This document shows positions 4,485-60,611 of a DNA stretch of 64,000 nucleotides, one piece after another. The stretch comes from Candidatus Kaiserbacteria bacterium (GTDB taxonomy: Bacteria > Patescibacteriota > Minisyncoccia > Phycocordibacterales > Phycocordibacteraceae). Location of the stretch: positions 3,184 through 67,183 of the forward strand of contig JACRFL010000013.1 of the NCBI GenBank assembly GCA_016217905.1, in the 5' to 3' direction. The notes beneath the pieces are model-generated. The model made no database searches. It saw only the letters and a program-made list of their open reading frames with translations, and was not told the origin of the DNA. The position numbers and the translations under genes were made by a program. Position 1 is the stretch's first letter. Every line of letters begins with the position of its first letter.

Positions 4485-6152
4485 CTATTGCGAGCGCATG
4501 AGCCGCACGAGGCGGATGGTTTCGAAGGAGTGGCGGCCGCCAAGAGCGTGGAAAACGGGCGAGAGGCGGTCGCCGCCCTCCGCAAAAAGCGTTTCGTGAA
4601 TCTCCTCAAGCGCGCCCTCCGACACGAGGTGAGCGAAATCCGCGCGCACGAGACGGCCGAGCTCGGCGAGCTCTTCGAGGTGCTTTACAATAGTCGAAGC
4701 GACGAGTCCGCGCGCTTTCGCCGCATCCTTCAGATTTTTTGCATCTCGCACTGCCTGCAGGGTTTCCGCCAATCTTCCCGGCAACCCTGTTTGGTTTTTG
4801 CTTACACCTTTCCCCTTGCCGCTTACGTCTTCAACCGACGCCCCTCCCATCGCTTTGACAAACTTTTTCTGCAGTGCGAGTTTTTCCATCTCGGGCATGT
4901 CTGCGAATGCGTCCCGCGCCGCCTCTGAGGCGGCGCGAAAATCCCTGTCTTTCTCAAGTATTTCCGGATGCACTTCAAGCGCGCGCTCGTTGAGTCCGGT
5001 GAGGTACACCCCCGCAAGCCGCCGCACCCGGGAAAGCGCGACGTACCCCTGTCCGTATTCAAATGCCCTCGAGAGATCCATGATGGCAGCGTCCATGCTC
5101 ATCCCCTGGCTCTTGTGGACCGTCATTGCATAGGAAAGACGCAGCGGTATCTGCGAGATGCTCGCCTTCACCTTCCCCTGCTCTTCGAGTTGCCATTCCA
5201 TCGGCTCGGTGGTGATCTTCACGCCATCTTTCGTCTTTACGATCGGCATCCCGTCCGTATCCCAGCCGGTCACGACGCCGAGAGTCCCGTTGACAAACTT
5301 CCCCTGCGGCGAGTTCTTGGTGAACATTACTGCCGCTCCCTCTTTCAATTCCAACACTTCGGGCGAGAGGCATCCGCGCTTGAGCCCATCCACAAGCGAA
5401 TCCTTCCCCTTCGAGCTCATGCGGAATTTCTTCGCCGTGCCCGGGAGCTTTGCGAGCTCCTCCGCATTGATGCGATCCACGTCCGCGTTATGCGAGAAGA
5501 GCTTCGGCGCGTTCGCGGGAACCGCCGAAGGGTCGGTGTGGTGCCGCATCAACTCCTCGTAGTGCGCCTCCTCGACCTCTCCCGAGCGTATCGCGGAGAG
5601 TACGCCGAGGAATTCGGTGTCGTCTTGCCGGTATTGCTCGGTGAGATAGCAGACGATCGGGTTGAGCTCGCGCCAGAGCTTCGACGCGAACGCGAACGCG
5701 ACTTCGCGGCCTCTTGAGACCGGCGGAAGCTGGAAGAAATCTCCGACGAGAATGGCCGTGAGACCGCCGAATGGCTTGTCCGTGCGTCGCACTTCTCGAC
5801 AGACCGTATCCGCCATCTCAAATGTCGAAGAAGAGAGCATTGAGATCTCCTCGATGATGAGCATCTTTGCTTTCTGGATGCGCCGCGCGACATGCTCTTT
5901 ACTGGCGATGCGGTCGACATCCGCGCGCGAGAGCGACTCCGCGACGCCGATGCCGCTCCAGGAGTGGAGCGTCATGCCCGCGACATGCGTCGCGGCGATG
6001 CCGGTCGCGGCGGTTACCGACGGATCGATACCCGAGGCGCGCAGCCATGCGATGAACTCGTTTATCGTGTGCGTCTTCCCGCTCCCGGGGCTCCCGGTGA
6101 GGTACACGTTCGCGCCGGTCTTCAGTATCGTGAGCGCTTCAGCTTGAGTCAT
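4485..6152 (-). CDS. PIF1/RecD-family ATP-dependent DNA helicase
   Basis: Walker A GSPGSGKTHTI, PIF1/AAA_30-like core, UvrD_C_2-like C-terminal part with helix-hairpin-helix tail. Confidence 0.75.
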   Translation of the reverse strand: MTQAEALTILKTGANVYLTGSPGSGKTHTINEFIAWLRASGIDPSVTAATGIAATHVAGMTLHSWSGIGVAESLSRADVDRIASKEHVARRIQKAKMLIIEEISMLSSSTFEMADTVCREVRRTDKPFGGLTAILVGDFFQLPPVSRGREVAFAFASKLWRELNPIVCYLTEQYRQDDTEFLGVLSAIRSGEVEEAHYEELMRHHTDPSAVPANAPKLFSHNADVDRINAEELAKLPGTAKKFRMSSKGKDSLVDGLKRGCLSPEVLELKEGAAVMFTKNSPQGKFVNGTLGVVTGWDTDGMPIVKTKDGVKITTEPMEWQLEEQGKVKASISQIPLRLSYAMTVHKSQGMSMDAAIMDLSRAFEYGQGYVALSRVRRLAGVYLTGLNERALEVHPEILEKDRDFRAASEAARDAFADMPEMEKLALQKKFVKAMGGASVEDVSGKGKGVSKNQTGLPGRLAETLQAVRDAKNLKDAAKARGLVASTIVKHLEELAELGRLVRADFAHLVSEGALEEIHETLFAEGGDRLSPVFHALGGRHSFETIRLVRLMRSQ

Positions 6153-10273: not shown

Positions 10274-11965
10274 ATGACAAAAGACGAATTGAAAAACGCG
10301 CTTGCGGGTGTCCTGCAAGGGGAAGTATCGAATGATGCGGTGGCGCTTGAGAAAGCGAGCCGCGACACCTCCCTCTTCGAGCGAATGCCGAAGCTGGTAG
10401 TGTATCCAAAAGATGCCAAGGACGTGAGCGCGGCGGTGAGAGAGGTAGCCCGCGCCCGCTCCGCGGGCGCGGATGTATCGCTTGCGGCGCGCGCGGGCGG
10501 GACCGATATGTCGGGCGGCCCCTTGACCACTAGCATCGTGGTTTCCTTCACCAAACACATGAATCATGTACTCGAGGTTTCCTCCAACTTGGAGGCCCGG
10601 CCTCCAAGTGAAGGATATGCGGTGACGGAACCGGGGGTTTATTATAGGGATTTTGAAAAGGCGACGCTTGAAAAAGGCTTCATACTTCCCTCTTATCCCG
10701 CCAGCCGCGAGATAGCCGCCATGGGCGGCATCGTCGCGAACAATTCCGGCGGCGAGCGCACGCTCAAGTACGGCCAGACGGAGCGGTACGTCGAGGAACT
10801 GGAGGTCGTGCTCTCTGACGGTTCGCAAGTTACGTTCAAAGCGTTGACACCTGCGGAATTGGAGGAAAAAAAGAAACTTCAGACGCTTGAAGGCGCCATC
10901 TACCGCGAGATGGACGCGCTTATCACCGACAATGCCGGGCTCATCGAGGGGCGCCGGCCGCGCGTGTCGAAGAATTCCGCCGGCTACGCGCTCTGGAGCG
11001 TACTTGATGCGAAAACCGGCACCTTCAATCTCGCGAAGCTGATCTGCGGCTCCCAGGGGACGCTCGCCCTCTGGACGAAGGCGGAGCTCTCCCTCGTGAA
11101 GCCGAAAGGGCACCGCGCGATGCTCGTCGCCTTCCTCTACGACCTTTCCGACCTCCCCGAAATAGTAAAGCGCGTGCTCGCGCAGGGCCCGGAATCTTTC
11201 GAATCTTATGACGACCACACCTTCACGCTTGCGGTGAAATTCATTCCCGAGATGCTTTCGCAGATGGGCTTGTTTAAGGCCGCGCGGCTCGGCATCGACT
11301 TCATCAGCGAAGCGGCAATGGTCGCCACCGGCGGCGTGCCGAAGCTCATCTTGATGGCGGAATTCGCCGAGGACACTATCGAGGAAGCCGATCGGAAGGC
11401 GCTTCTCGCGAAGGAAGCGCTCGCCGACCTTCATCTTCATACCAAAATAGAGAAGGATGAGAAAGAGTCGGAGAAGTATTGGATCGTCCGACGCGAGAGC
11501 TTCTCGCTCCTGCGCAAGAACGTTCACGGGCTCCACACCGCGCCTTTCATCGACGATTTCGTCGTTCCGCCTTCGAGCTATCCCGACTTCCTGCCGAAAC
11601 TGAACGCGCTTCTCGAGGAATACTCATCGCACTTCATCTACACGATCGCGGGACACATCGGCAACGGCAACTTCCACATCATTCCGCTCATGGATCTCAC
11701 GAAGGAGGAGAACCGACAAGTCATCCTCGACCTTGCGCCCCGAGTCTACGAACTCGTCACCCGAGAGGGTGGCACGACGACCGGCGAGCACAACGACGGC
11801 ATCATCCGCACGCCGTACCTCAAGCTGGTTTTCGGCGCGGAAATGGTCGCGCTCTTCGAGCGGACGAAAAAAATCTTCGATCCTTTGAATATTTTCAACC
11901 CCGGGAAGAAAGTCGGCGGCACGTTTGCTGACATCGAGCGGGACATGATTAAGACGGCACCGTAA
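10274..11965 (+). CDS. FAD-linked oxidase (GlcD / D-lactate dehydrogenase-like, PCMH-type FAD-binding domain) carrying an in-frame palindromic insertion
   Basis: FAD-binding PCMH-type N-terminal domain and FAD-oxidase C-terminal domain (HGLHTAPFID, GEHNDGIIRTPYL). ATG at 10274 (MTKDELKNAL) is preferred over the tracker start 10217. Confidence 0.75.
   Translation: MTKDELKNALAGVLQGEVSNDAVALEKASRDTSLFERMPKLVVYPKDAKDVSAAVREVARARSAGADVSLAARAGGTDMSGGPLTTSIVVSFTKHMNHVLEVSSNLEARPPSEGYAVTEPGVYYRDFEKATLEKGFILPSYPASREIAAMGGIVANNSGGERTLKYGQTERYVEELEVVLSDGSQVTFKALTPAELEEKKKLQTLEGAIYREMDALITDNAGLIEGRRPRVSKNSAGYALWSVLDAKTGTFNLAKLICGSQGTLALWTKAELSLVKPKGHRAMLVAFLYDLSDLPEIVKRVLAQGPESFESYDDHTFTLAVKFIPEMLSQMGLFKAARLGIDFISEAAMVATGGVPKLILMAEFAEDTIEEADRKALLAKEALADLHLHTKIEKDEKESEKYWIVRRESFSLLRKNVHGLHTAPFIDDFVVPPSSYPDFLPKLNALLEEYSSHFIYTIAGHIGNGNFHIIPLMDLTKEENRQVILDLAPRVYELVTREGGTTTGEHNDGIIRTPYLKLVFGAEMVALFERTKKIFDPLNIFNPGKKVGGTFADIERDMIKTAP
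10584..10610. repeat. Palindromic element family A copy (CCAACTTGGAGGCCCGGCCTCCAAGTG), in frame inside the FAD-oxidase CDS
   Basis: Stem of 10 bp (ACTTGGAGGC / GCCTCCAAGT) with a 3-nt loop. Encodes SNLEARPPSE. The same sequence recurs at 38450 and 42379. Confidence 0.8.
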
Positions 11966-19106: not shown

Positions 19107-19299
19107 AAGAACAAGAAATGCAATGCAATCATGGAGGCCGGACCTCCGCTAGAGACGGGCGACACTATCCCCACCCACACTTGCGCCTCCAGGACATTTC
19201 TGGCATACTGCGGGCACTCGCAGAGTATTCGAGCTTCGCTCGGCCGCTTGCGGCCGCAAGTGTTCAGTTTCGGCGAGGTTAACCGGTTAGACCCACCAC

Positions 19300-19916: not shown

Positions 19917-20669
19917 ATGACTCGCGACGAGAAGTGGCTCTTGGAGGAAAAATATCATGGAAACGCGACAGTCGCATATGCGGCGGATGCGAAGCGGCTC
20001 GCCTCCGGCGAGCCGCTCGGCTATGTGATCGGCTGGCAGCCGTTTCTCGGCCTCAACATCTATCTCGATTCGCACCCTCTCATCCCCCGCCCCGAGACGG
20101 AGTGGTGGACGGAGCAACTTCTAACCAACTTGGAAGCGAAGCTTCCAATTGGAAGCTTCGCTTCCAAGTTTAAGTTCCTCGACCTGTGCGCCGGATCCGG
20201 TGCCATCGGCTGTGCCGCGCTCGCGAGACTGCCGGACGCCCGGGTATATTTCGGCGAGATCGATCCGGCGCATACCGCGACCATTGTGAAAAACATTCGA
20301 GAAAATAATCTCGACGAACCACGCGCGGACATCCTCACCGGTGATCTCTTCGGACCGTTCGCCGGTTTGCGCTTCGACGTCATCGCGGCGAACCCGCCCT
20401 ACGTTTCCGCAGGCCGCGCGCTCCCCTCAAGCGTCGCGGGCTACGAGCCGGCTACGGCCCTCTTCGCCGGAGAGGATGGCCTCGATATCATCCGCCGCAT
20501 CGCGAAAGAGCTTTCGAAATATCTTAAAGAGAGCGGTACCGCGTGGATCGAGTGCGACAGCGCGCACGCGGCAGCCGCGTGCGCGCTCTTCGCGGAGCAG
20601 GGATTCGACGCACAGATACGCACCGACCAATACGGCGACTCGCGCGTTCTCGTAGTATCATTCCCCTGA
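19917..20669 (+). CDS. prmC: Release-factor N5-glutamine methyltransferase (HemK/PrmC family) carrying an in-frame 44-nt perfect palindrome
   Basis: NPPY catalytic motif (IAANPPYV), SAM-binding LDLCAGSGAIG. Start MTRDEKW at 19917. Confidence 0.75.
   Translation: MTRDEKWLLEEKYHGNATVAYAADAKRLASGEPLGYVIGWQPFLGLNIYLDSHPLIPRPETEWWTEQLLTNLEAKLPIGSFASKFKFLDLCAGSGAIGCAALARLPDARVYFGEIDPAHTATIVKNIRENNLDEPRADILTGDLFGPFAGLRFDVIAANPPYVSAGRALPSSVAGYEPATALFAGEDGLDIIRRIAKELSKYLKESGTAWIECDSAHAAAACALFAEQGFDAQIRTDQYGDSRVLVVSFP
20127..20170. repeat. 44-nt perfect palindrome (AACTTGGAAGCGAAGCTTCCAA | TTGGAAGCTTCGCTTCCAAGTT) in frame inside prmC; variant of family A
   Basis: Perfect 22+22 inverted repeat. Encodes NLEAKLPIGSFASKF between the conserved EQLL and LDLCAGSG blocks, where E. 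coli PrmC has a shorter linker. Confidence 0.8.
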
Positions 20670-21498: not shown

Positions 21499-22734
21499 AT
21501 GGCTGAGCCGCTCTCAACCGACCCGTACAAGGGTGTCCGCGACTTCTACCCCGCCGAGTGGGAGAGGGTGGGCGCGATGTTCAGCGCAATTCGGGATACG
21601 CTTCGCGCCTGGGGATACGAAGAATACAACGCCTCCCCGCTTGAGCGCACCGAACTCTACGAGGCGAAGACGTCAGAAGAGATAGTGAACGAGCAGACCT
21701 ACACCTTCACCGACCGCGGCGGTCGAAGCGTGACGCTCCGCCCCGAGATGACTCCCACGCTTGCGCGCATGGTCGCCGCCAAACGCCGCGAACTCACCTT
21801 TCCGCTGCGTTGGTTTTCCATCGGCAACCGCTTCCGCTACGAGCGTCCGCAGAAAGGCCGCCTCCGCGAGTTCTACCAGGCGGACATCGACCTCGTCGGT
21901 CTTCCCGAGGGCGAGGCGGACATCGAAATCGTACAACTCGCCTCGGCGATACTCACTGCGTTTGGCGCTACAGAACGCGATTTTATTATTCGAGTTAACT
22001 CTCGCTCACTTCTAAACGCCGCGTGCGAAGCGGCTGGACTTACCGGCGACGCAGTCAGACAGTATCTGCGTCTTCTCGATAAGAGATCGAAAATGACTCC
22101 TGAGGCCTTCCGAGCTGCTTCAACCGCGATTACCGCAACCGATCCGCTCACGCTCATCGATTCAAAAAAAATGGATGCCTTTATCTTTACGCTCAAAGAG
22201 CGCGGCATCGGCAATATCGTCTTCGACGCCGGCATCACGCGCGGTTTTGACTATTACACCGGCATGATTTTTGAGGTATTCGATACGAATCCGACGAACC
22301 CGCGCTCGCTCTTCGGCGGCGGACGCTATGACGGCCTGGTCGCACTCTGGGGCGACGACGCCGTCCCGGCGGTCGGCTTCGCGCTCGGGGATGTTACGCT
22401 CGCCGACTTTCTTGAGACGCATTCGCTCCTACCGAAGTCAGACTTCGGTAGGCCGCAGGTGTATCTTGGCACGCCGACCGCCGGCGACATCCCCGCTGCA
22501 CAAGCATTCGCTGATACGCTGCGCAAAGAGGGCTTCCGCGTTTTCGTCAATCTCTCCGACCGCTCGCTCGGCGACCAAATAAAAGATGCCGTGAAGCGCG
22601 GCGTCCCGCTCTTCCTCGCGTATGGTGTCGACGAGGTTGCTCGCCAAACGGTCCGCATGAAGATACTCCGTACCGGCGAAGAAGCTGAACTCCCGGCGTC
22701 CGAGCTCCCCGCGCGGCTGCGCGCTGGGAGCTAG
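21499..22734 (+). CDS. hisS: Histidyl-tRNA synthetase
   Basis: Class-II aaRS motifs and HisRS-specific blocks (RPEMTPTLARMV, FRYERPQKGRLREFYQ, GGGRYDGL). Contains a 25-nt perfect palindrome in frame. Confidence 0.9.
   Translation: MAEPLSTDPYKGVRDFYPAEWERVGAMFSAIRDTLRAWGYEEYNASPLERTELYEAKTSEEIVNEQTYTFTDRGGRSVTLRPEMTPTLARMVAAKRRELTFPLRWFSIGNRFRYERPQKGRLREFYQADIDLVGLPEGEADIEIVQLASAILTAFGATERDFIIRVNSRSLLNAACEAAGLTGDAVRQYLRLLDKRSKMTPEAFRAASTAITATDPLTLIDSKKMDAFIFTLKERGIGNIVFDAGITRGFDYYTGMIFEVFDTNPTNPRSLFGGGRYDGLVALWGDDAVPAVGFALGDVTLADFLETHSLLPKSDFGRPQVYLGTPTAGDIPAAQAFADTLRKEGFRVFVNLSDRSLGDQIKDAVKRGVPLFLAYGVDEVARQTVRMKILRTGEEAELPASELPARLRAGS
22428..22452. repeat. Palindromic element family B copy (CCTACCGAAGTCAGACTTCGGTAGG) in frame inside hisS
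   Basis: Perfect 12-bp arms around a central A. Encodes LPKSDFGR. Confidence 0.8.
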
Positions 22735-34953: not shown

Positions 34954-35622
34954 CTAACGCTTCGTGCGCCACGCATCAATCTTGGCGTGGTGGCCGGTTC
35001 GGAGAACTTTGGGAACGCGATACTTCTTACCTTTGTATAAAATTGTCTCGGGGCGGGTGTAGACGGCCGATGAGGCGATACGACGCTCCTCCACGGAGGC
35101 GTCCTTGCCGAGGACGCCCGGCAGGCGGCGCGTGACCGCATCCACGATTGCGAGCGCCGGCACTTCCCCTCCGGTATACACCGCTTCGCCGACGGCAAAT
35201 TCTTTCACCGGCGCGAACGTCTTGAGGATCTTCTTCGCGCGCTCGTCGATGCCCTCGTAGCGGCCGCAGACAAGGACGACATCCGTGTACTTTGCAAGCG
35301 CGTCTGCATACTTATTTGTGAATTGCTTCCCGCTCGGACTAAACCATATAATTAGCGGCTTTTTCATGTAGGACGTACGACGTCCTACATTCTTTTTCAA
35401 AGCTTTTTCCACGGCTTTGACGACCGGGAGTGCGGTCATCACCATCCCGGGGCCGCCGCCATACGGACGTTCATCCACCTTGCCCCACTTGTTGTCGACG
35501 AAATCACGCGGGGTCTGATACGTTACAGAAATCTTCTTCTCCTTCCGCACGCGCCCGATAATCGACGCCGAAAGATACGCGTCGCACGCTTCTTCAAACA
35601 ATGTAATCAAATGGAATTTCAC
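34954..35622 (-). CDS. trmD: tRNA (guanine37-N1)-methyltransferase
   Basis: SPOUT/TrmD blocks ERPYGGGPGMVM. Confidence 0.9.
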   Translation of the reverse strand: MKFHLITLFEEACDAYLSASIIGRVRKEKKISVTYQTPRDFVDNKWGKVDERPYGGGPGMVMTALPVVKAVEKALKKNVGRRTSYMKKPLIIWFSPSGKQFTNKYADALAKYTDVVLVCGRYEGIDERAKKILKTFAPVKEFAVGEAVYTGGEVPALAIVDAVTRRLPGVLGKDASVEERRIASSAVYTRPETILYKGKKYRVPKVLRTGHHAKIDAWRTKR

Positions 35623-36498: not shown

Positions 36499-38448
36499 AT
36501 GGCAGCGGAAACACTCTACGAGGGCCCGATAACGATGACCCGGAAAGGCATCGGCTTTTTCTCGGTTGGCGCCGATACGGAGGACCTGATTATCCCGCCG
36601 GAGTGGACCCATCACGCGCTTCACGGCGACATCGTGAAGGTCGCTCCGGCCGGCAGCTATCGCGACCCGAGGGGGATGATGCCGCCGAGAGAGGCCGGCA
36701 AGGTCGCCGAGATCGTCTCGCGCGCGCGCGAGACATTCGTCGGCACGCTAATCGAGGAAAACGACCTCACGATGATGGCGCCGGACTACAAGAAGATGCA
36801 TGTGCCGATTGTCATTAAGGACAGAGGCGATGCGCCGCTCGGCTATAAAGTCCTCGTGCGGCTCGCAAGCTGGGAGGCTGACAAAGAATATCCGCTCGGT
36901 ACTATCGAAGAAGTTATCGGCAAGGCTGGCGCGCATGAGACCGAGATGCGTGCACTCGCGCTTGGGCAGGGATTCTCGCCCGCCTTCCCTCCCGGTGTTG
37001 TCGCCGATGCGAAACATCTCGAGGAGCACGGACGCGCGCTGCTCGCCGAAGAGGCGAAAAATTCAAAGCGTCGCGACTTCAGAAACGTCAGCACCTGTAC
37101 CATCGACCCCTTCGACGCAAAAGACTTCGACGATGCGCTCTCCGTGCGGAAACTTCCTGACGGGAACATCGAAGTCGGCGTCCATATCGCCGATGTCTCT
37201 TTCTTCGTGAAGCCCGGTACCGCGCTCGACAAGGAGGCGGTGGAGCGCGCGACAAGCGTATACCTCGTCGACCGCACGATCCCGATGCTCCCCGAGATTC
37301 TCTCGACCAACCTCTGCTCGCTGAATCCGAACCAGGACCGCCTCGCCGTCTCTGCGGTCTTTACGCTCGATGAAGAGGCGAATATCAAGGATACCTGGTT
37401 CGGCGAGACGGTCATCCACTCCGACAAACGCTTTACGTATGAAAACGCTCAAGAGGTGCTCGACCGAGGCGAGGGCGATTTACACGCAGAGCTCTCGACA
37501 CTTCTCGAACTTTCCAAGAAGATCCGCGCGCGGCGCGCGGCGAAGGGCGCTATTGAATTTGATACCGCCGAGGTCAAGGTCGAGCTCGATGAGGCAGGTA
37601 AGCCGATCGCTATCCGTCTCAAAGAGCGCAAGGCGACGAACCTCCTCATCGAGGACTTTATGCTGCTCGCTAACGAAGCAGTGGCGAAGCATCTCTCTGC
37701 GCTCACGAAGAATGGCGGGCCGCACTTCTACTCGCTCTACCGTATTCACGATGTGCCGGACACCGACCGTATCGAAAATCTCGCGAACCTGCTTCGCTCC
37801 ATGGGCTACCACTTGAAAACGTCCGGCGGCGGCCAAGTCACCGGTGCCGAATTAAACAAACTTCTCGAATCGGTAAAGGGGAAGCCGGAAGAATATCTTG
37901 TAAAAACCGCGGCGCTGCGCTCGATGAGCAAGGCCGTCTACGCGACCCGCAACATCGGCCACTTCGGCCTCGCGTTCGACTACTACACGCACTTCACCTC
38001 CCCCATACGCCGCTACCCCGATCTCGTTGCCCATCGACTTATCAAGGCGCATGCAGGCGGCGCCCCGATAACGTCGGAAGAGATGCGGGAGTTTGATAAA
38101 CTCGCATTCCACGCCTCCGAGCGCGAGGTGGCCGCCGCCGACGCCGAGCGCGACTCGATCAAGATGAAGCAGGTGGAGTTTCTCGCCGAGCGCATCGGCG
38201 AAGAATTCGATGCCGTTATCTCTGGCGTCACCGATCGCGGCCTCTACGTCGAAGAACAGGCGACTCATGCCGACGGCATGGTCCGCATCAAAGACGTCGG
38301 CGACGATTATTTCGAATACGAAGAGAAGCAATATCGACTTGTCGGCCGCCGCACGAAGAAGGCGTACCGCCTCGGCGACCCCATCCGCGTGCGCCTCTCC
38401 GCCGCGCGCATCGCGGAAAAAGAACTGGACTTCGTTCCGGTCGTCTAA
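36499..38448 (+). CDS. rnr: RNase II/R-family 3'-5' exoribonuclease
   Basis: RNB catalytic domain and C-terminal S1 domain. Confidence 0.8.
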   Translation: MAAETLYEGPITMTRKGIGFFSVGADTEDLIIPPEWTHHALHGDIVKVAPAGSYRDPRGMMPPREAGKVAEIVSRARETFVGTLIEENDLTMMAPDYKKMHVPIVIKDRGDAPLGYKVLVRLASWEADKEYPLGTIEEVIGKAGAHETEMRALALGQGFSPAFPPGVVADAKHLEEHGRALLAEEAKNSKRRDFRNVSTCTIDPFDAKDFDDALSVRKLPDGNIEVGVHIADVSFFVKPGTALDKEAVERATSVYLVDRTIPMLPEILSTNLCSLNPNQDRLAVSAVFTLDEEANIKDTWFGETVIHSDKRFTYENAQEVLDRGEGDLHAELSTLLELSKKIRARRAAKGAIEFDTAEVKVELDEAGKPIAIRLKERKATNLLIEDFMLLANEAVAKHLSALTKNGGPHFYSLYRIHDVPDTDRIENLANLLRSMGYHLKTSGGGQVTGAELNKLLESVKGKPEEYLVKTAALRSMSKAVYATRNIGHFGLAFDYYTHFTSPIRRYPDLVAHRLIKAHAGGAPITSEEMREFDKLAFHASEREVAAADAERDSIKMKQVEFLAERIGEEFDAVISGVTDRGLYVEEQATHADGMVRIKDVGDDYFEYEEKQYRLVGRRTKKAYRLGDPIRVRLSAARIAEKELDFVPVV

Positions 38449-38449
38449 A

Positions 38450-38475
38450 ACAACTTGGAGGCCGGGCCTCCAAGT
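38450..38475. repeat. Palindromic family A copy (CAACTTGGAGGCCGGGCCTCCAAGTG) between convergent rnr and smc; probable bidirectional terminator
   Basis: Same element as at 10584 in opposite orientation (loop CGG vs CCG). Sits 2 nt after the rnr stop and 3 nt before the smc stop. Confidence 0.75.
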
Positions 38476-38477
38476 GC

Positions 38478-40688
38478 TTATTTTGCGACGGAGACCGCTT
38501 CGTCGAACTTCACCGAGAGGAGCTTGGAAACGCCGTCGCCGCCCATGGTAACGCCGTAGAGAACGCTCGTGCGGCTCATGGTTTCGCGATTGTGGGTGAT
38601 GACGATGAGTTGCGACTTCTGCGCGAGGTTCTCGATCATGTCGCCGTAGCGGCGGCTGTTCGCCTCGTCCAAGGCGGCATCGGTTTCATCGAGTATAAGA
38701 AATGGCGGCGGGTTCACCTGGCTCATCGCGAAGATGAGCGCGATCGAAGTGAGCGCGCGCTCGCCGCCCGAGAGCTGCATCAAGGAGCGCACCTTTTTCT
38801 TCGGCAGATTGACGGCTATTTCTATGCCGGGACGCTCTTCTTTCTCTGGTTCGTCGCTCGATTCTTCTTCACCATCTTCTAACTCTTCGGGTTCTTCCGG
38901 CTCTTCGAGCGTGAGCCGCGCGCCGCCGCCGCCGAACATAAGCGCGAAGTATTCGCCGAACGATGCGTTCACCTTGGTGAGCCCTTCGGAGAAATGCTTC
39001 GCGAGCTCTGTGTCAAGGTCGTGGATGAGCGAACCGAGACCTGCAGAGGACTTCGCAAGATCCTCAAGCTCGGTCGCAAGAAACGCTTCTCGCTCCGACA
39101 CCTCCTTGTGCTCCTGCCGGATCTCTTCGCCGGTACCACCCGCCTCCTCGAGGCGAATCTTGGTGCGCTCAAGGACGCGCTTACGATCTTCTTGCACTTT
39201 GCGCTCCCCATCGGGCAGTTGTGCAAGAGGCGCATACGAGATGGTCGCCGTGCCAGCGATGGCGAGCGCTTCTCCTTTGTCACGTTCAAGCGACTCGGCG
39301 AGGAGCGTGAGTTCGAACTCGCGCGCCTCGGCCTTGGCTATCTCGCCCTCCTCGCGCGCCTTCGTTTGTGCAAGGTCGAGGATGCGTCGCCTCACTTCGC
39401 GGCCGGTCTCTTCAAGCGCAAGCATCGCTTCGCGGGAGCGCGCACGCGCCGACTCGGCATTCTCGAGCGCCGCCGAGGCGGCCGCATATTTCTCGGCGAG
39501 CGCGCTTCGCTCCTGCTCAAGCTTCAGAGCGGCATTTTCCTCCTCGGAGAAATAGTCGTCTCGGGGCGCGCCGTGCCGGGAGAAGAAGAATCTGACCGCC
39601 GCAGCGATCGCGTCAAGCGCGGCGCGTAACGCCTCGACGCTCCCACCGGCGACGGTCTGAGCCTGCTTCTCGACCTCGTCGCGCAACGCTTCGAGCTCTT
39701 CGCGCGGCACCTTCGCGTACGGCTCACGTGCGACCGCAGAGGCGCGCCGCTTCACCTCCGCGAGCGCGCCCTCGACGCGGCCGATATCGCGCGAGAGCGA
39801 GGCGCGCGCACTCGAGTTCTCGACGACCTCCCGTTCCGCCCTCCGCAGCGCTTCGGCGCGCTGAACCGTCTCATGGTCTGCCGACTTTGGGTCTGCGACC
39901 CGATCGAGCTCGACGCTCACTACCGCAAGGCGTTCGGTCGCGTTTCGCTTCTCTCCAGCAACTTTTATTTTCTCTTGCGCAAGATAGGCGTCCTCGATTG
40001 CAAAGTACGTCTGCGCGAGTCCGACGAGCTCGACGCGGAGCGTATCGGCGCGCTCAAGCTTCTTCACCTGTCCTTCGAGGAATCGCAGATGCGGCGCGAG
40101 CTCGCGCCGCAACGAGTTGACCTGCGCAATATTCTCTTCGGTCTTTTCAAGTTTTTTCTCCGCCTCGCGTTTTTTAAATTCGTAAATCTTTAGTCCAAGC
40201 GCGTCCTCAAGTATCGCGCGGCGGTCGCGGGGAGAGGCGAGCAGTATCCTATCCGCCTCGCCCTGGGAAATGATGTGGTGCCCCGTCTCGCCGATGTTCG
40301 CGCCGGCCAAGAGCTCCTCTATGTCGCGCAGCCGCACGCGCGAGCCGTTAATGGAGTACTCGCTCGCTCCGTCGCGCAGCACGGCGCGCTCGATCGAGAC
40401 TTCGTCGAAGTCGATCTTGAACGTACGCCGGGAATTATCGAATACGATCGTCACAGCCGCGCGATTTGCCCTTGGGACTGTATGGGAACCGCCCCAGATG
40501 AGGTCCTCCGCACGCTTGCCGCGCATGCTCTTCATCGACTGCTCGCCGAGCGCGAAGCGGAACGCCTCGGCGACATTCGATTTGCCTGAGCCGTTCGGGC
40601 CGACGATCGCGGTCGTAGAATTGGAAAAATCCAAAACCGTCTTCTTGGCGAACGACTTAAACCCGACGATCTCCAATCGCTTCAGCAT
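38478..40688 (-). CDS. smc: SMC-family chromosome segregation ATPase (unusually short, 736 aa)
   Basis: N-terminal Walker A GPNGSGKSN. C-terminal signature/Walker B LSGGERALTSIALIFAM ... FLILDETDAALD. Long coiled-coil middle; no clear hinge seen. Confidence 0.7.
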   Translation of the reverse strand: MLKRLEIVGFKSFAKKTVLDFSNSTTAIVGPNGSGKSNVAEAFRFALGEQSMKSMRGKRAEDLIWGGSHTVPRANRAAVTIVFDNSRRTFKIDFDEVSIERAVLRDGASEYSINGSRVRLRDIEELLAGANIGETGHHIISQGEADRILLASPRDRRAILEDALGLKIYEFKKREAEKKLEKTEENIAQVNSLRRELAPHLRFLEGQVKKLERADTLRVELVGLAQTYFAIEDAYLAQEKIKVAGEKRNATERLAVVSVELDRVADPKSADHETVQRAEALRRAEREVVENSSARASLSRDIGRVEGALAEVKRRASAVAREPYAKVPREELEALRDEVEKQAQTVAGGSVEALRAALDAIAAAVRFFFSRHGAPRDDYFSEEENAALKLEQERSALAEKYAAASAALENAESARARSREAMLALEETGREVRRRILDLAQTKAREEGEIAKAEAREFELTLLAESLERDKGEALAIAGTATISYAPLAQLPDGERKVQEDRKRVLERTKIRLEEAGGTGEEIRQEHKEVSEREAFLATELEDLAKSSAGLGSLIHDLDTELAKHFSEGLTKVNASFGEYFALMFGGGGARLTLEEPEEPEELEDGEEESSDEPEKEERPGIEIAVNLPKKKVRSLMQLSGGERALTSIALIFAMSQVNPPPFLILDETDAALDEANSRRYGDMIENLAQKSQLIVITHNRETMSRTSVLYGVTMGGDGVSKLLSVKFDEAVSVAK

Positions 40689-40728: not shown

Positions 40729-41418
40729 TTACCAACCCATCTTCTCGAGTGCGTTCTGAGCGGAAGATTGTTCGGCTTCTTGCTTAGAGTTCCCTTCTCC
40801 GCGGGCGATTTCGGAGGAGCCAATGAAGACGCCGACGGTGAAGCGCTTGTCGTGATCGGGCCCGACTTCAGAGAGAGTCTCGTAGGCAGGCGTGATGCCC
40901 CGCTTCTCCTGTGCGCTTTCCTGGAACCTGCTCTTCGCGTCTTGGTAGGAGCGCTTGGCGATAACCTCGTCGATTTTAATGTACACATTCCGCGCGATGA
41001 ATTGTTCGGCCGGCGCGTAGCCCTGATCCAAATAGATTGCGCCGATGACTGCTTCGAACGCATCCGCGAGGATCACATCGCGCGCGCGGCCGGTATCTTT
41101 CGCCTCACCCTTCGAGAGCAGCAAAAAATCATTGATGCCGAGCGCCTGCGCGCGCTCGGCCAAGGAGACGGTGTTTACGAGCGCGGCGCGATACGCCGTG
41201 AGCTCCCCTTCGGGCTTCTCGGGGAATTTTTTAAAAAGAAAATCAGTAGTGGCGAGCTCAAGCACCGCATCACCGAGAAACTCGAGCCGCTCGTTGTGAG
41301 ACCCCGTGTATTCGCGGTGCTCGTTGAGGTAGGAGCGGTGCGTCAGGGCCTCGATAAGAAGGTCGAGGCTGTTGAAGGAGAGACCGAGTCGTGCTGCGAA
41401 AACGTTGAAATCAGGCAT
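40729..41418 (-). CDS. rnc: Ribonuclease III
   Basis: RNase III signature ERLEFLGDAVLE plus C-terminal dsRBD. Start at MPDFNVF (41418). Confidence 0.88.
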   Translation of the reverse strand: MPDFNVFAARLGLSFNSLDLLIEALTHRSYLNEHREYTGSHNERLEFLGDAVLELATTDFLFKKFPEKPEGELTAYRAALVNTVSLAERAQALGINDFLLLSKGEAKDTGRARDVILADAFEAVIGAIYLDQGYAPAEQFIARNVYIKIDEVIAKRSYQDAKSRFQESAQEKRGITPAYETLSEVGPDHDKRFTVGVFIGSSEIARGEGNSKQEAEQSSAQNALEKMGW

Positions 41419-42328
41419 GAAGTTGCGTCTCACGTGCGGCGCCGGCGTGGTCGAGGAGTTTCTGGACGGCGACAGTGACGATGGGGAGCATATCATCGTA
41501 GAAATTGAGATCAATGATGTCCTGGAGCCGGAACCATTTCGCGTCGTCGAGCCCGCCGCTCTTCTTCAGCTGAAGCGGCTCGAAGTTGCTCGACGCGAGG
41601 AAGAACCAGACGTGCTTCCTGACCTTCCCTTTCTCCGGGTGCGAAGCGACGTATTCGTTCTCGCCGACCTGTGCGCCCACGGAAGCGGTGAGACCGAGTT
41701 CTTCCTTGATGACGCGCGCGACGCCCGTCTGCGGCGTCGCGTCCTCTTCGATGTGGCCCTTCGAGAGCGTCCAGTGGCCGAAGACGTCGTGCACGAGCGC
41801 GAGGTAATACTGTCCCTCGTGCTTGGCATACACGATGGCGCCGCCCATTTTCTCAAGCGGCAATTCTTCGCGCTTTACTTTCTTTCCTCCGTGCTCGTTC
41901 TTGCCGGGTTCGCCGAGCTCCTTGTAGACCGCGCCGAGGACTCCGTTAACGAACCGGCCGCTCGAGTCGCCGCCGAAGGTCTTCGCGAGCTCGATGGCTT
42001 CGTTGATAGCGACTTTTGCGGGTACCTGTGTGCGATCGGCGAAGAGGAGTTCGTGGAGCCCGAGGCGGAGGATGTTGCGGTCAATGGGTGCGATGCGCTC
42101 CAAAGGCCACTCGGGAGCGGCTTTTTCGATGACGAGATCGATGTCGCTTTTCTTGGTGAGGACGCCCGAGAGAAGGCCATTCATGAACGATTGGTCGACA
42201 TCGCCGCTGCCGAACTCCTCGACATTGCGCGCGAGGATCGCGAACGTGTCCTTCTCGGACGCATGCATGGTGTCCCACTCAAAGAGTGTTTGAAGGACAA
42301 TGGAACGCGCGAGGTGTCGATTCGCCAT
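41411..42328 (-). CDS. nusB: NusB antitermination factor fused to a C-terminal Nudix hydrolase domain (start at MANRHL, 42328; tracker TTG start rejected)
   Basis: NusB fold from the start to about residue 150 (IVLQTLFEWD ... RFVNGVLGAVYKE). This is followed by a Nudix-box-like GHIEEDATPQTGVARVIKEELGL and a Nudix C-terminal part. Confidence 0.65.
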   Translation of the reverse strand: MANRHLARSIVLQTLFEWDTMHASEKDTFAILARNVEEFGSGDVDQSFMNGLLSGVLTKKSDIDLVIEKAAPEWPLERIAPIDRNILRLGLHELLFADRTQVPAKVAINEAIELAKTFGGDSSGRFVNGVLGAVYKELGEPGKNEHGGKKVKREELPLEKMGGAIVYAKHEGQYYLALVHDVFGHWTLSKGHIEEDATPQTGVARVIKEELGLTASVGAQVGENEYVASHPEKGKVRKHVWFFLASSNFEPLQLKKSGGLDDAKWFRLQDIIDLNFYDDMLPIVTVAVQKLLDHAGAARETQLHA

Positions 42329-42378: not shown

Positions 42379-42407
42379 CCAACTTGGAGGTCCGGCCTCC
42401 AAGTTGG
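42379..42407. repeat. Palindromic family A copy (CCAACTTGGAGGTCCGGCCTCCAAGTTGG) in the rpmF-nusB spacer; terminator/attenuator-like hairpin
   Basis: 12-bp perfect arms, 5-nt loop. Confidence 0.75.
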
Positions 42408-42408
42408 A

Positions 42409-42762
42409 TTATGCGCCGCCGCCGAAGCCGCTACGCGCCTTGGGGCGGCCGCCGGTCGCGAGCTTTCCGAAAATTCCTTTCGAGCTTTTTGCGTCGGCAT
42501 TCGCGTGCTCCTCGTGCGCGTGTTCATGAGCATGCTTTGCTTCGGGCGAGGTCGAAGGGCCTTTCACCTTTTCTTTTGAAACACGCGTCCCGCGGGCTGG
42601 TGCGATCTGCTTGCCGCGGTACATTCCCGTCGCTTCGTCGAGGCGGTGCGGGAGGCGTGCGTTGCCGCTCTCTTTATCATTCACGATATTCGTGTTCTTG
42701 AGCGCGTGGTGTGACCGGCGATTGCTGGTGTGGCCTCTGGTGTGGCGCATGCGAATTGACAT
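42409..42762 (-). CDS. rpmF: 50S ribosomal protein L32 with long His/Ala/Gly-rich C-terminal extension
   Basis: N-terminus [21 protein letters not shown] ... GMYRGKQI matches the L32 RRSHDAL ... GYYRGRK signature. About 60 extra C-terminal residues ([10 protein letters not shown]). Confidence 0.7.
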
Positions 42763-42839
42763 AGGCACCACCCTATCATGCCGCGGATAAAAAATCAAAA
42801 CGTCGCCTATAGGGCGACGTTTGCTAATCTGGGAGTCCG

Positions 42840-43133
42840 CTAAGTGGCGGCCTCGGTTTTCCTGCAGGCACAGGTCTGCGCCTCCGCAGCGGAAACTGCG
42901 GCGCGCTGAATCCCGCAACACACCGTAAACTTACTGATGCCCTTTCTGTCAATTGCCGTCGGGCCGATGCAGCCGACGCAATTCTTAAAACCGAAAGTTC
43001 TCAATGCATCGGGCGTTGGTTTGACCGTCCCATTTTCATTTATGTGGAACTCTTGTAGGCGGTCACGTTGGCCGCTAAGCGACCCTTCTTGTTGCAGCAT
43101 ATCTTCTCCTTGAAAGATCTCGTTCTTGCCCAA
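42840..43133 (-). CDS. Small Cys-rich hypothetical protein upstream of rpmF
   Basis: 97 aa with CVGC ... CC ... CAC. Positionally where DUF177/YceD is often found, but homology is not established. Confidence 0.4.
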
Positions 43134-43165: not shown

Positions 43166-43765
43166 TTATTCCCGAATGGAATCAAGATGCAGGAAGGAAC
43201 GGCGGTGGATAACGCAGGGGCCGTATTTTTCAAGTGCTTCGTAATGCGCGCGGGTACCGTAGCCCTTGTGCTTCTCAAAACCGTAGAGCGGGTACTCTGC
43301 CGACAGCCGGACCATGAGCCGGTCGCGGCTGACCTTCGCCGCAATAGAGGCGAGTGAGATAAGCGGAACGAGCTCGTCGCCGCCCACGATAGTTTCTTGC
43401 GCATATTCAGGCGGCGCCTTGAGTGCCCCGTCCAGCAGAATACGGAAGTCAGACTTCCGTACTTCTCCTACGAGAACACGTACGCCGCGGAAGAGCGCGC
43501 GACGCACGGCTGTTACGATTCCTTCCCTGTCGATTATTCCGGCGCTCTCGAACTCGACCGTAAAGCGCGCGTCGCCCAGGGCGACGCGCGCTTCGAGCAT
43601 CCGGTAAATCGCCTCCCTTTTCTTTTCTGAAAGTTTTTTCGAGTCCCTGACGCCCGGGAACTCGCCCGCCACATCGAACCCTTCCGGCATCGCGACCACG
43701 CCGACCGCCAAGGGTCCCGCCAAGGGTCCCCGCCCCGCTTCATCCACCCCGAGCAAGAATCGCAT
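43166..43765 (-). CDS. rnhB: Ribonuclease HII
   Basis: LGVDEAGRGPLAGPL catalytic N-terminus. Contains a family B palindrome in frame. Confidence 0.88.
   Translation of the reverse strand: MRFLLGVDEAGRGPLAGPLAVGVVAMPEGFDVAGEFPGVRDSKKLSEKKREAIYRMLEARVALGDARFTVEFESAGIIDREGIVTAVRRALFRGVRVLVGEVRKSDFRILLDGALKAPPEYAQETIVGGDELVPLISLASIAAKVSRDRLMVRLSAEYPLYGFEKHKGYGTRAHYEALEKYGPCVIHRRSFLHLDSIRE
43441..43461. repeat. Palindromic family B copy (TACGGAAGTCAGACTTCCGTA) in frame inside rnhB
   Basis: 10-bp arms. Encodes RKSDFR on the coding (minus) strand. Confidence 0.8.
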
Positions 43766-52298: not shown

Positions 52299-52344
52299 GA
52301 GAGCCACGCGATTTCCGGCGTTAGCCGGAAATCGCGTGGCTCTC
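52299..52344. repeat. 21-bp perfect inverted repeat straddling the sortase stop codon (GAGAGCCACGCGATTTCCGGC gtta GCCGGAAATCGCGTGGCTCTC)
   Basis: Seen directly. The right arm encodes the last seven sortase residues (ESHAISG). No T-tract follows. Confidence 0.7.
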
Positions 52345-55991: not shown

Positions 55992-58543
<2,552 letters not shown>

Positions 58544-60491: not shown

Positions 60492-60569
60492 GTCTCAATT
60501 GTACTCCGCTAGAATCTAGTTTAGCAAAAATCTCGACCGACTTCGCACGCGCCGAGGCCGTATGCGCTT

Positions 60570-60607
60570 GCCCCAGAGCCCGCGCGTACTCGCGCGGGCT
60601 CTGGGGC
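60570..60607. terminator. 17-bp perfect hairpin (GCCCCAGAGCCCGCGCG tact CGCGCGGGCTCTGGGGC) between convergent genes
   Basis: Seen directly. Lies 5 nt from the stop of the minus-strand gene. No clear T-tract. Confidence 0.45.
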
Positions 60608-60611
60608 AGAA

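Follow-up and report, generated by a model that had tools for sequence, protein, structure and literature searches.

In the repetitive extragenic palindromic (REP) systems of Proteobacteria, such as those of E. coli, Pseudomonas and Stenotrophomonas, short hairpin repeats occur together with a REP-associated tyrosine transposase (RAYT, or TnpA_REP), a Y1 HUH enzyme whose gene is bracketed by its cognate repeats in what has been called a REPtron (PMC3733652, PMC6006769). Separate transposase clades go with separate repeat families, copies are alike within a genome, intergenic copies lie near gene 3′ ends and between convergent genes, and there is no target-site duplication. Here, we describe a hairpin repeat with all of these properties, which we call family A, in a stretch of Candidatus Kaiserbacteria DNA (64,000 nt of contig JACRFL010000013.1, all of which is referred to below as the window) and in relatives from the Candidate Phyla Radiation (CPR, or Patescibacteria). 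Family A probably represents the REP-type repeats that belong to a clade of RAYT-like Y1 HUH transposases specific to the CPR.

Family A also departs from the proteobacterial pattern. Its stems are perfect and lack the unpaired GTAG/CGTC tag, its copy number appears low where tens to hundreds per genome are the norm, its stem is common to CPR classes whereas REPs are species-specific, and many of its copies are intragenic whereas REPs are predominantly extragenic. Unlike the classical enzyme, the CPR protein has ~220 aa and falls under the NCBIfam RAYT cutoff, and its gene holds two in-frame copies of its own repeat. Intragenic REPs are known in other phyla, from Opitutus terrae and Rickettsia conorii (PMC3733652), where short hairpins (RPE-4 and RPE-6, which are counted among the CGTC REPs) sit in frame in housekeeping genes as family A does, sometimes twice or as dimers and apparently in tolerant regions (PMC3733652). 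The CGTC REPs differ from family A in tag, sequence family and phylum, and they were reported without a dedicated transposase (PMC3733652), whereas family A has a cognate RAYT.

The IS200/IS605 insertion sequences (IS608 and ISDra2) would be akin to family A in transposase superfamily, in hairpin recognition in single-stranded DNA and in seamless insertion and excision, but each of these is an autonomous element, present in many copies, whose left and right ends differ, whereas the dispersed family A unit is a bare hairpin. The first-pass annotation of the window had instead likened the repeat to Rickettsia palindromic elements (RPEs) and Neisseria Correia elements. Like family A, RPE-1 is a palindromic repeat found both in frame in protein genes and in non-coding DNA, and Correia elements and similar miniature inverted-repeat transposable elements are small non-autonomous repeats able to affect neighbouring genes. 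RPE-1 is ~100–150 bp long and adds tens of residues, and to our knowledge it has no associated transposase and is limited to Rickettsia; Correia elements are ~100–155 bp long, with terminal inverted repeats and a duplicated TA target. Family A is not RPE-1-like because its element measures 23–29 nt, not 100–150 bp, and brings a net gain of 9 aa, and it is not Correia-like because it is a single hairpin without terminal inverted repeats around a core and without target-site duplication. Both of these were therefore the wrong families, and the evidence points to REP repeats with a cognate RAYT.

The family A hairpin in the window and across the CPR

The 23-nt hairpin core of family A, ACTTGGAGG-N5-CCTCCAAGT, is present in three intact copies in the window. 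An FAD oxidase gene holds one of them in frame, and the other two lie just 3′ of stop codons. The features concerned are as follows.

10274–11965, plus strand: FAD-binding oxidoreductase coding sequence (FAD_binding_4 and FAD-oxidase_C), host of the in-frame copy, from its translation
10580–10612, plus strand: 33-nt in-frame segment coding SSNLEARPPSE (residues 103–113), from alignments of 28 and 120 orthologs
10587–10609, no strand assigned: core hairpin of family A within the FAD oxidase coding sequence, ACTTGGAGGC ccg GCCTCCAAGT, from sequence and fold
38453–38475, no strand assigned: family A hairpin between convergent rnr (plus strand) and smc (minus strand), from sequence, Pfam and fold
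42379–42407, no strand assigned: family A hairpin CCAACTTGGAGG tccgg CCTCCAAGTTGG with a 12-bp stem, from sequence, Pfam and fold

The first-pass annotation had placed one and the same palindrome at 10584, 38450 and 42379. All of these sequences are present (10584–10610 reads tCCAACTTGGAGGcccggCCTCCAAGTgaa), but an exact search of the window matched the full pattern, CCAACTTGGAGG-N3-5-CCTCCAAGTTGG, only at 42379–42407, and what the copies at 10587–10609 and 38453–38475 share is the shorter 23-nt core, in which a 3-nt loop is closed by a stem of 10 bp. Read on the opposite strand, the in-gene copy agrees with the rnr/smc copy at 23/23 positions. With at most one mismatch, the 11-mer CAACTTGGAGG occurs 6 times where 0.7 occurrences are expected, a count reached in 0/100 shuffles. 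Folded as single-stranded DNA, the three intact copies give energies of −12.2, −10.8 and −13.9 kcal/mol (z = −5.1, −4.9 and −7.3). Counting two relatives described below (a 44-nt double palindrome and a weak relic), the window inventory of three intact copies and two relatives compares with ~0 expected by chance.

Pfam matches bear out the gene contexts first proposed for the intergenic copies, namely convergent rnr/smc and rpmF/nusB. The hairpin at 38453–38475 lies 4 nt from the rnr stop (38446–38448) and 2 nt from the smc stop (38478–38480), and it scores terminator-like on both strands (GC-rich stem plus T run), a pattern that does not apply to the in-gene copy. On the minus strand, the rpmF stop is followed after 1 nt by the hairpin at 42379–42407. 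The likely nusB ATG (42328), on the same strand, comes ~50 nt after this hairpin, which is thus upstream of the nusB-NUDIX open reading frame (ORF). No target-site duplication, a matter raised in the first-pass annotation, is visible as a flanking direct repeat at any of the three window copies, and a search of the whole window against Rfam at gathering thresholds came out empty.

Species-representative genomes were scanned for ACTTGGNGGN{3,5}CCNCCAAGT, and the family A pattern was found at at least 120 loci, so the family extends well beyond the window copies. Counted from record labels, 75 of the matches listed carry the label of a CPR taxon, from many classes, and ~13 are labelled plain 'bacterium'; the CPR labels are Kaiser-, Nomura-, Taylor-, Wolfe-, Niyogi-, Giovannoni-, Vogel-, Zambryski- and Moraniibacteria, Paceibacterota, Minisyncoccia and Saccharibacteria. 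The non-CPR matches listed mostly have 3–4-nt loops or unpaired N positions, like chance matches, and family A is concentrated in the CPR. Its hairpin has the form ACTTGG-N-GG / CC-N′-CCAAGT with a covarying central pair: among the matches listed, the two N positions are complementary in 129/151 instances, and the first and last positions of the 5-nt 'loop' pair in 99/122. The flanks show a weak [CT][CT][CA] / [GT][GA][GA] preference, which tends to lengthen the stem. The loci fetched for the FAD oxidase gene, 895 kb in total, hold 13 family A copies (0.2 in shuffles), the window has 3 copies in 64 kb, and the overall range is ~8–47 copies per Mb. One contig labelled Gammaproteobacteria (L116, CAZHDT010000007.1; 35% GC) has three family A hairpins within 130 nt and may be mis-binned or mislabelled.

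That density bears on whether family A could be a DNA-uptake sequence or else a miniature transposon of the RPE-1 or Correia kind, mobilised by a DDE transposase. We consider either of these highly improbable. In-frame insertion does resemble that of the Rickettsia RPEs, and paired uptake sequences can, as a matter of general knowledge, form terminators. However, uptake sequences occur at about one per kb, far above the density of family A, the whole element is one short hairpin of the build described above, and the transposase found with it is of the Y1 type. On the grounds of spacing, the variable central base and gene contexts, we also rejected a fragment of a tRNA or rRNA, a CRISPR repeat, a diversity-generating retroelement hairpin and Shine-Dalgarno/anti-Shine-Dalgarno pairing.

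A RAYT-like gene bracketed by family A

Every locus with at least three family A copies, among the matches listed, has a hairpin on each side of a gene for a protein of 214–230 aa and one or two more inside it, and this gene, which family A physically brackets, is RAYT-like. Nine bracketed genes all match Pfam Y1_Tnp (E 1e-4 to 1e-10), and among the NCBIfam families they come closest to NF047646 (REP-associated tyrosine transposase), though under its cutoff. A database search for homologs gave 3,991 clusters at E ≤ 1e-5, in which every named match was CPR and several were labelled 'REP element-mobilizing transposase RayT' by JGI. The residues H84/H86 (NPNHxH) and Y144 (YVNLN) are invariant, and the top Foldseek match in the PDB is 4er8_A, E. 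coli TnpA_REP with a REP hairpin, followed by IS608 and ISDra2 TnpA. Inside the gene there are two co-varying in-frame family A copies, coding LGGxTxK, and this internal pair consists of identical 7-mers in 69/100 proteins, where 10.9 are expected under random pairing (maximum 21). In four RAYT homologs (P0124, P0228, P0135 and P0173), the gene calls read through the flanking repeats, which adds LGGxTxK- or PPS-type protein ends, and many RAYT-bearing contigs are only 1–3 kb long, as expected if assemblies break at repeats.

A profile search of all fetched loci found 24 RAYT-like genes, and each sub-clade is flanked by its own palindrome. Family A goes with clade 1, ..TGAAGT cag ACTTCA.. with the genes of L003 and L147, and ATGTAGGACGT acg ACGTCCTACAT with that of L004, while those of L012, L135 and L022 are flanked by yet other palindromes. 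Distinct RAYT clades thus pair with distinct palindromes. Two RAYT clades are present on the 170-kb contig Ga0334722_10000054, each of them once, and the FAD oxidase copy of this contig, the genome-specific variant ACTTGGGTGTccaACACCCAAGT, is identical at 23/23 positions to the repeat just upstream of the clade-1 RAYT gene ~69 kb away. In-gene copies therefore match other copies of the same genome in two genomes, this one and that of the window, and because of this identity they are either recent arrivals or have been rewritten to the local variant.

A Y1_Tnp family gene with hairpins at both ends, and with IS608 and ISDra2 TnpA as close fold matches, could also be taken for an autonomous insertion sequence of the IS200/IS605 type, whose ends or leftover ends would be the hairpins. 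We regard this as very unlikely. Solo hairpins far outnumber the gene (the 895 kb with 13 family A copies has no clade-1 gene), the flanking and internal copies are all the same palindrome where an insertion sequence would have a left end unlike its right end, RAYT and not IS200 is the family matched best, and each clade occurs only once on the 170-kb contig.

Copies inside genes and at one FAD oxidase codon

Counted among the matches listed plus the window, 54 of 117 perfect copies (about 46% of those sampled) lie in frame inside ORFs of at least 150 aa, ~17 of them inside RAYT genes. The non-coding copies number 67, and 21 of these have a stop codon no more than 20 nt away. The 54 intragenic copies use all three frames (LGGxTxK 31, L[EAGV]xxPPS 16 and TW[RG]xxxQV 7), and half of the family A 23-mers are stop-free in all six. 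Ten host ORFs were checked against Pfam. Nine matched, as a class I tRNA synthetase, DnaE (DNA polymerase III alpha), FGAM synthase, PheT (PheRS beta), TsaD (two ORFs), XseA (exonuclease VII large subunit), ArgRS and phosphoglucomutase (PGM), and the tenth (L068, 664 aa) matched nothing; the hairpin in the checked ORFs sits mostly at domain boundaries.

The copies near stop codons would also suit a structural signal selected by the host, such as a 3′-end terminator, an mRNA stabiliser or a host-protein site, with the RAYT as a mere passenger or user. The stem is conserved across CPR classes, unlike that of the usual species-specific REPs, copy number is low, the rnr/smc copy fits a bidirectional terminator pattern, and compensatory changes preserve stem pairing. 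On the other side, all three reading frames are used in unrelated housekeeping genes, the flanking palindrome family differs from one RAYT clade to the next, copies are identical within a genome while orthologous sites differ between genomes, one of the stop-proximal window copies (42379) has no T run, and there is no Rfam family match. On balance, we think that a host signal is improbable, although it is the rival to which we give most weight.

The FAD oxidase gene provides a case in which empty and filled sites can be compared. Translated from the M at 10274, it gives a protein that agrees over its full length, at 100% identity, with P0001 (563 aa; named 'FAD-binding oxidoreductase [Candidatus Kaiserbacteria bacterium]'), and the in-gene copy codes SNLEARPPSE, as the first-pass annotation had it. 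The segment SSNLEARPPSE replaces the G-D of insert-free orthologs: the window protein reads EV-SSNLEARPPSE-GYAV, and about half of 28 orthologs (77–82% identity) read EVG-DDYAV and have 554 aa. Among 120 listed orthologs (77–100% identity), 60 have no insert at this codon, and the other 60 have varied inserts at exactly the same codon, which are family A variants, tandem doubles of family A (e.g., EVVSNLAAKPPSHLEVSPPSAGYA) or other palindrome families. The unrelated perfect palindromes found there are ATGTAGGAC[AG]T ccg/acg at six loci, CACTTGGAAGT cgg ACTTCCAAGTG at one locus and GAAATCGCG ggcta CGCGATTTC at three loci. The insert is lineage-specific, and the main idea of the first-pass annotation, that one hairpin family occurs both in coding frame and between genes, holds.

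Several orthologs do have an xNL..PPS-like peptide at the site, which might suggest that the segment is ancestral coding sequence, palindromic by chance and with merely coincidental intergenic matches. We give this almost no credence. Half of the orthologs lack the segment and others hold unrelated palindromes at the same codon, the chance expectation of the motif is ~0, and the arms of the family A inserts covary at the DNA level (GGAGG/CCTCC in the window, GGCGG/CCGCC in L001, GGGGG/CCCCC in L002 and L154, GGGTG/CACCC in L204). The comparison of ortholog DNA already contradicts an ancestral peptide. Neither of the outcomes that the first-pass annotation had named as refuting its view is borne out, as the peptide is not ancestral and family A has members beyond these copies.

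On a crude neighbour-joining tree with Fitch counting, the FAD oxidase insert requires at least 26 gain/loss steps (shuffled mean 40.6). In the AlphaFold (AF2) model of the window protein (pTM 0.79), the insert forms a coil or loop between strands 101–103 and 113–118. The empty site reads GTC-GGC-GAC, and two loci (L125 and L126) have 9–11-bp native stems there. The pile-up of families at this codon may reflect target preference, loop tolerance or the attraction of repeats by repeats. In one ortholog (L145:2863 region), an in-frame stop directly follows the inserted palindrome (..SYIDG*AVTEPG), which could mark a pseudogene or a sequencing error.

Other palindromes and the proposed partnership

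Two relatives of family A complete the window inventory.

20127–20170, no strand assigned: perfect palindrome of 44 nt, formed by the two inverted units TTGGAAGC gaa GCTTCCAA and TTGGAAGC ttc GCTTCCAA, from sequence, Pfam and fold
19133–19147, no strand assigned: 15-nt core GGAGGCCGGACCTCC, probably a decayed relic, intergenic and upstream of an RRM-protein gene

The 44-nt palindrome, which the first-pass annotation had reported in prmC, was recovered in an MTS/PrmC-like methyltransferase coding sequence, where it codes TNLEAKLPIGSFASKF in a variable linker and folds at −24.1 kcal/mol (z = −9.9). Judged by sequence, its units are related to family A and differ by a G>A / C>T change that is compensated in the stem. 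Compared with one ortholog of equal length it is no net insertion, and at this variable linker an insertion would be only putative. The degenerate core claimed at 19133 is present, and on the opposite strand it equals the central 15 nt of the 42379 copy, but as a structure it is not significant and does no better than shuffles (z = −0.5).

The two palindrome families that flank other RAYT clades also occur inside window genes (22428, 43441, 35366 and 57547). The palindromes ..CCGAAGT cag ACTTCGG.. at 22428–22452 (HisRS) and 43441–43461 code a KSDF motif and resemble the hairpins that flank the second RAYT clade (L003 and L147). The HisRS palindrome has a counterpart at the corresponding position of L204 (L204:21556), in which the loop is inverted; it was rejected as a net insertion, since it takes the place of an equal-length segment. 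At 35366–35390 there is a perfect in-gene palindrome, ATGTAGGACGT acg ACGTCCTACAT, coding NVGRRTSYM, and at 57547–57567 another, GTGGGACGT acg ACGTCCCAC; the family of the former, besides flanking the RAYT-like gene of L004, fills the FAD oxidase site in L141, L142 and L145. The same stem with an inverted loop is found at some orthologous sites, namely in TsaD (L020 vs L071), PrmC (window 19993 vs L002) and HisRS (window 22428 vs L204). The PrmC-like case is an 11-bp stem, AGCGGCTCGCC, in the PrmC-like gene of both genomes (window 19993–20017 and L002:17482–17506), whose 3-nt loop reads tcc in the window and gga in L002.

In a PIF1-like helicase gene, a palindrome with a 10-bp stem, CG[CT]GCCGCCT c[at]g AGGCGGC[AG]CG, lies at the same place in three genomes (window 4915–4937, L002:7009 and L003:2675), with one compensated stem change and a loop flip. 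Long perfect hairpins of unrelated sequence occur at 52299–52344 (21-bp stem) and 60569–60608 (18-bp stem), and the former contains GAAATCGCG, which is also the stem at the FAD oxidase site of L135, L146 and L155. Among the neighbours of the intergenic copies, all on the minus strand, 41411–42328 is a single ORF with a NusB domain (residues 25–154) and a NUDIX domain (194–292), 38478–40688 codes an SMC-like protein of only 736 aa, and 42409–42921 is the rpmF ORF of 170 aa, whose L32p domain is at residues 59–106; the start of the last may be called too early, or the protein may have an N-terminal extension.

Under the REP/RAYT reading, the unit is a hairpin in which a 10–12-bp stem, ACTTGG-N-GG-Y / R-CC-N′-CCAAGT, closes a 3-nt loop. 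On the analogy of how TnpA_REP and the TnpA of IS200/IS605 act, the transposase would recognise and cut this hairpin in single-stranded DNA and would copy or move it without target-site duplication, keeping the copies of one genome alike through conversion or re-insertion; it is by the same analogy that RAYT may catalyse the movement of family A copies. Because the stem is free of stop codons in every frame, in-frame copies in loops or domain linkers could survive as short peptide inserts such as SSNLEARPPSE. Copies just 3′ of stop codons may persist as 3′-end hairpins, of which the rnr/smc copy looks like a bidirectional terminator, and the hairpins may have terminator or mRNA-stabilising activity.

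A number of points weigh against this reading. The hairpin foot lacks an unpaired GTAG/CGTC-like tag. Density is low, as 6 of the 13 copies in the 895 kb sit at the FAD oxidase codon itself and the background is therefore only ~8 per Mb. The convergence of several palindrome families on that single codon is not explained by the REP/RAYT model alone. The 42379 copy fails the terminator pattern because no T run follows it. The NF047646 scores of 24–34 bits are below the curated cutoff of 80. With a pLDDT of 55.7, the structure model of the RAYT is a poor one, and the fold match is therefore suggestive at most and is used as support only. Searching PDB sequences, either with a single RAYT or with a profile built from 10 sequences, gave nothing useful. 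A tblastn search with ten RAYT proteins found no RAYT gene in the 64-kb window, so for the window genome the RAYT link rests on relatives. Finally, transposition or conversion of copies is putative and read from sequence comparison.

A broader proposal, which we put forward tentatively as possible rather than probable, is that of an ancient, radiation-wide REP-RAYT partnership in the CPR. In it, the RAYT would keep two of its own hairpins, possibly for self-regulation or as conversion templates, in-gene copies would be actively rewritten to the current variant of the genome, and the repeats would time and again supply short peptide inserts to essential proteins, in their loops and linkers, where some sites, the FAD oxidase loop among them, would be preferred. 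What is new beside the known REP/RAYT systems is the self-decoration of the RAYT, the conservation of the stem across CPR classes and the insertion hot spot. The first-pass annotation knew of no such description for this kind of genome, and our searches of a limited literature collection agree: no description of REP/RAYT in the CPR was found, only unrelated papers or one incidental mention in an archaeon, and the surveys of RAYT and Y1 transposases do not mention the CPR.

CPR genomes are tiny and streamlined, and a persistent repeat that writes itself into essential genes is unexpected in them. If our reading is true, REP/RAYT biology would extend to a major uncultivated radiation, and the FAD oxidase site would offer an unusually clean natural insertion set, with the same codon empty or filled by different families. 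It would also explain some of the lineage-specific peptide inserts and contig breaks in CPR assemblies, and it would provide a testable case of repeat homogenisation in coding DNA.

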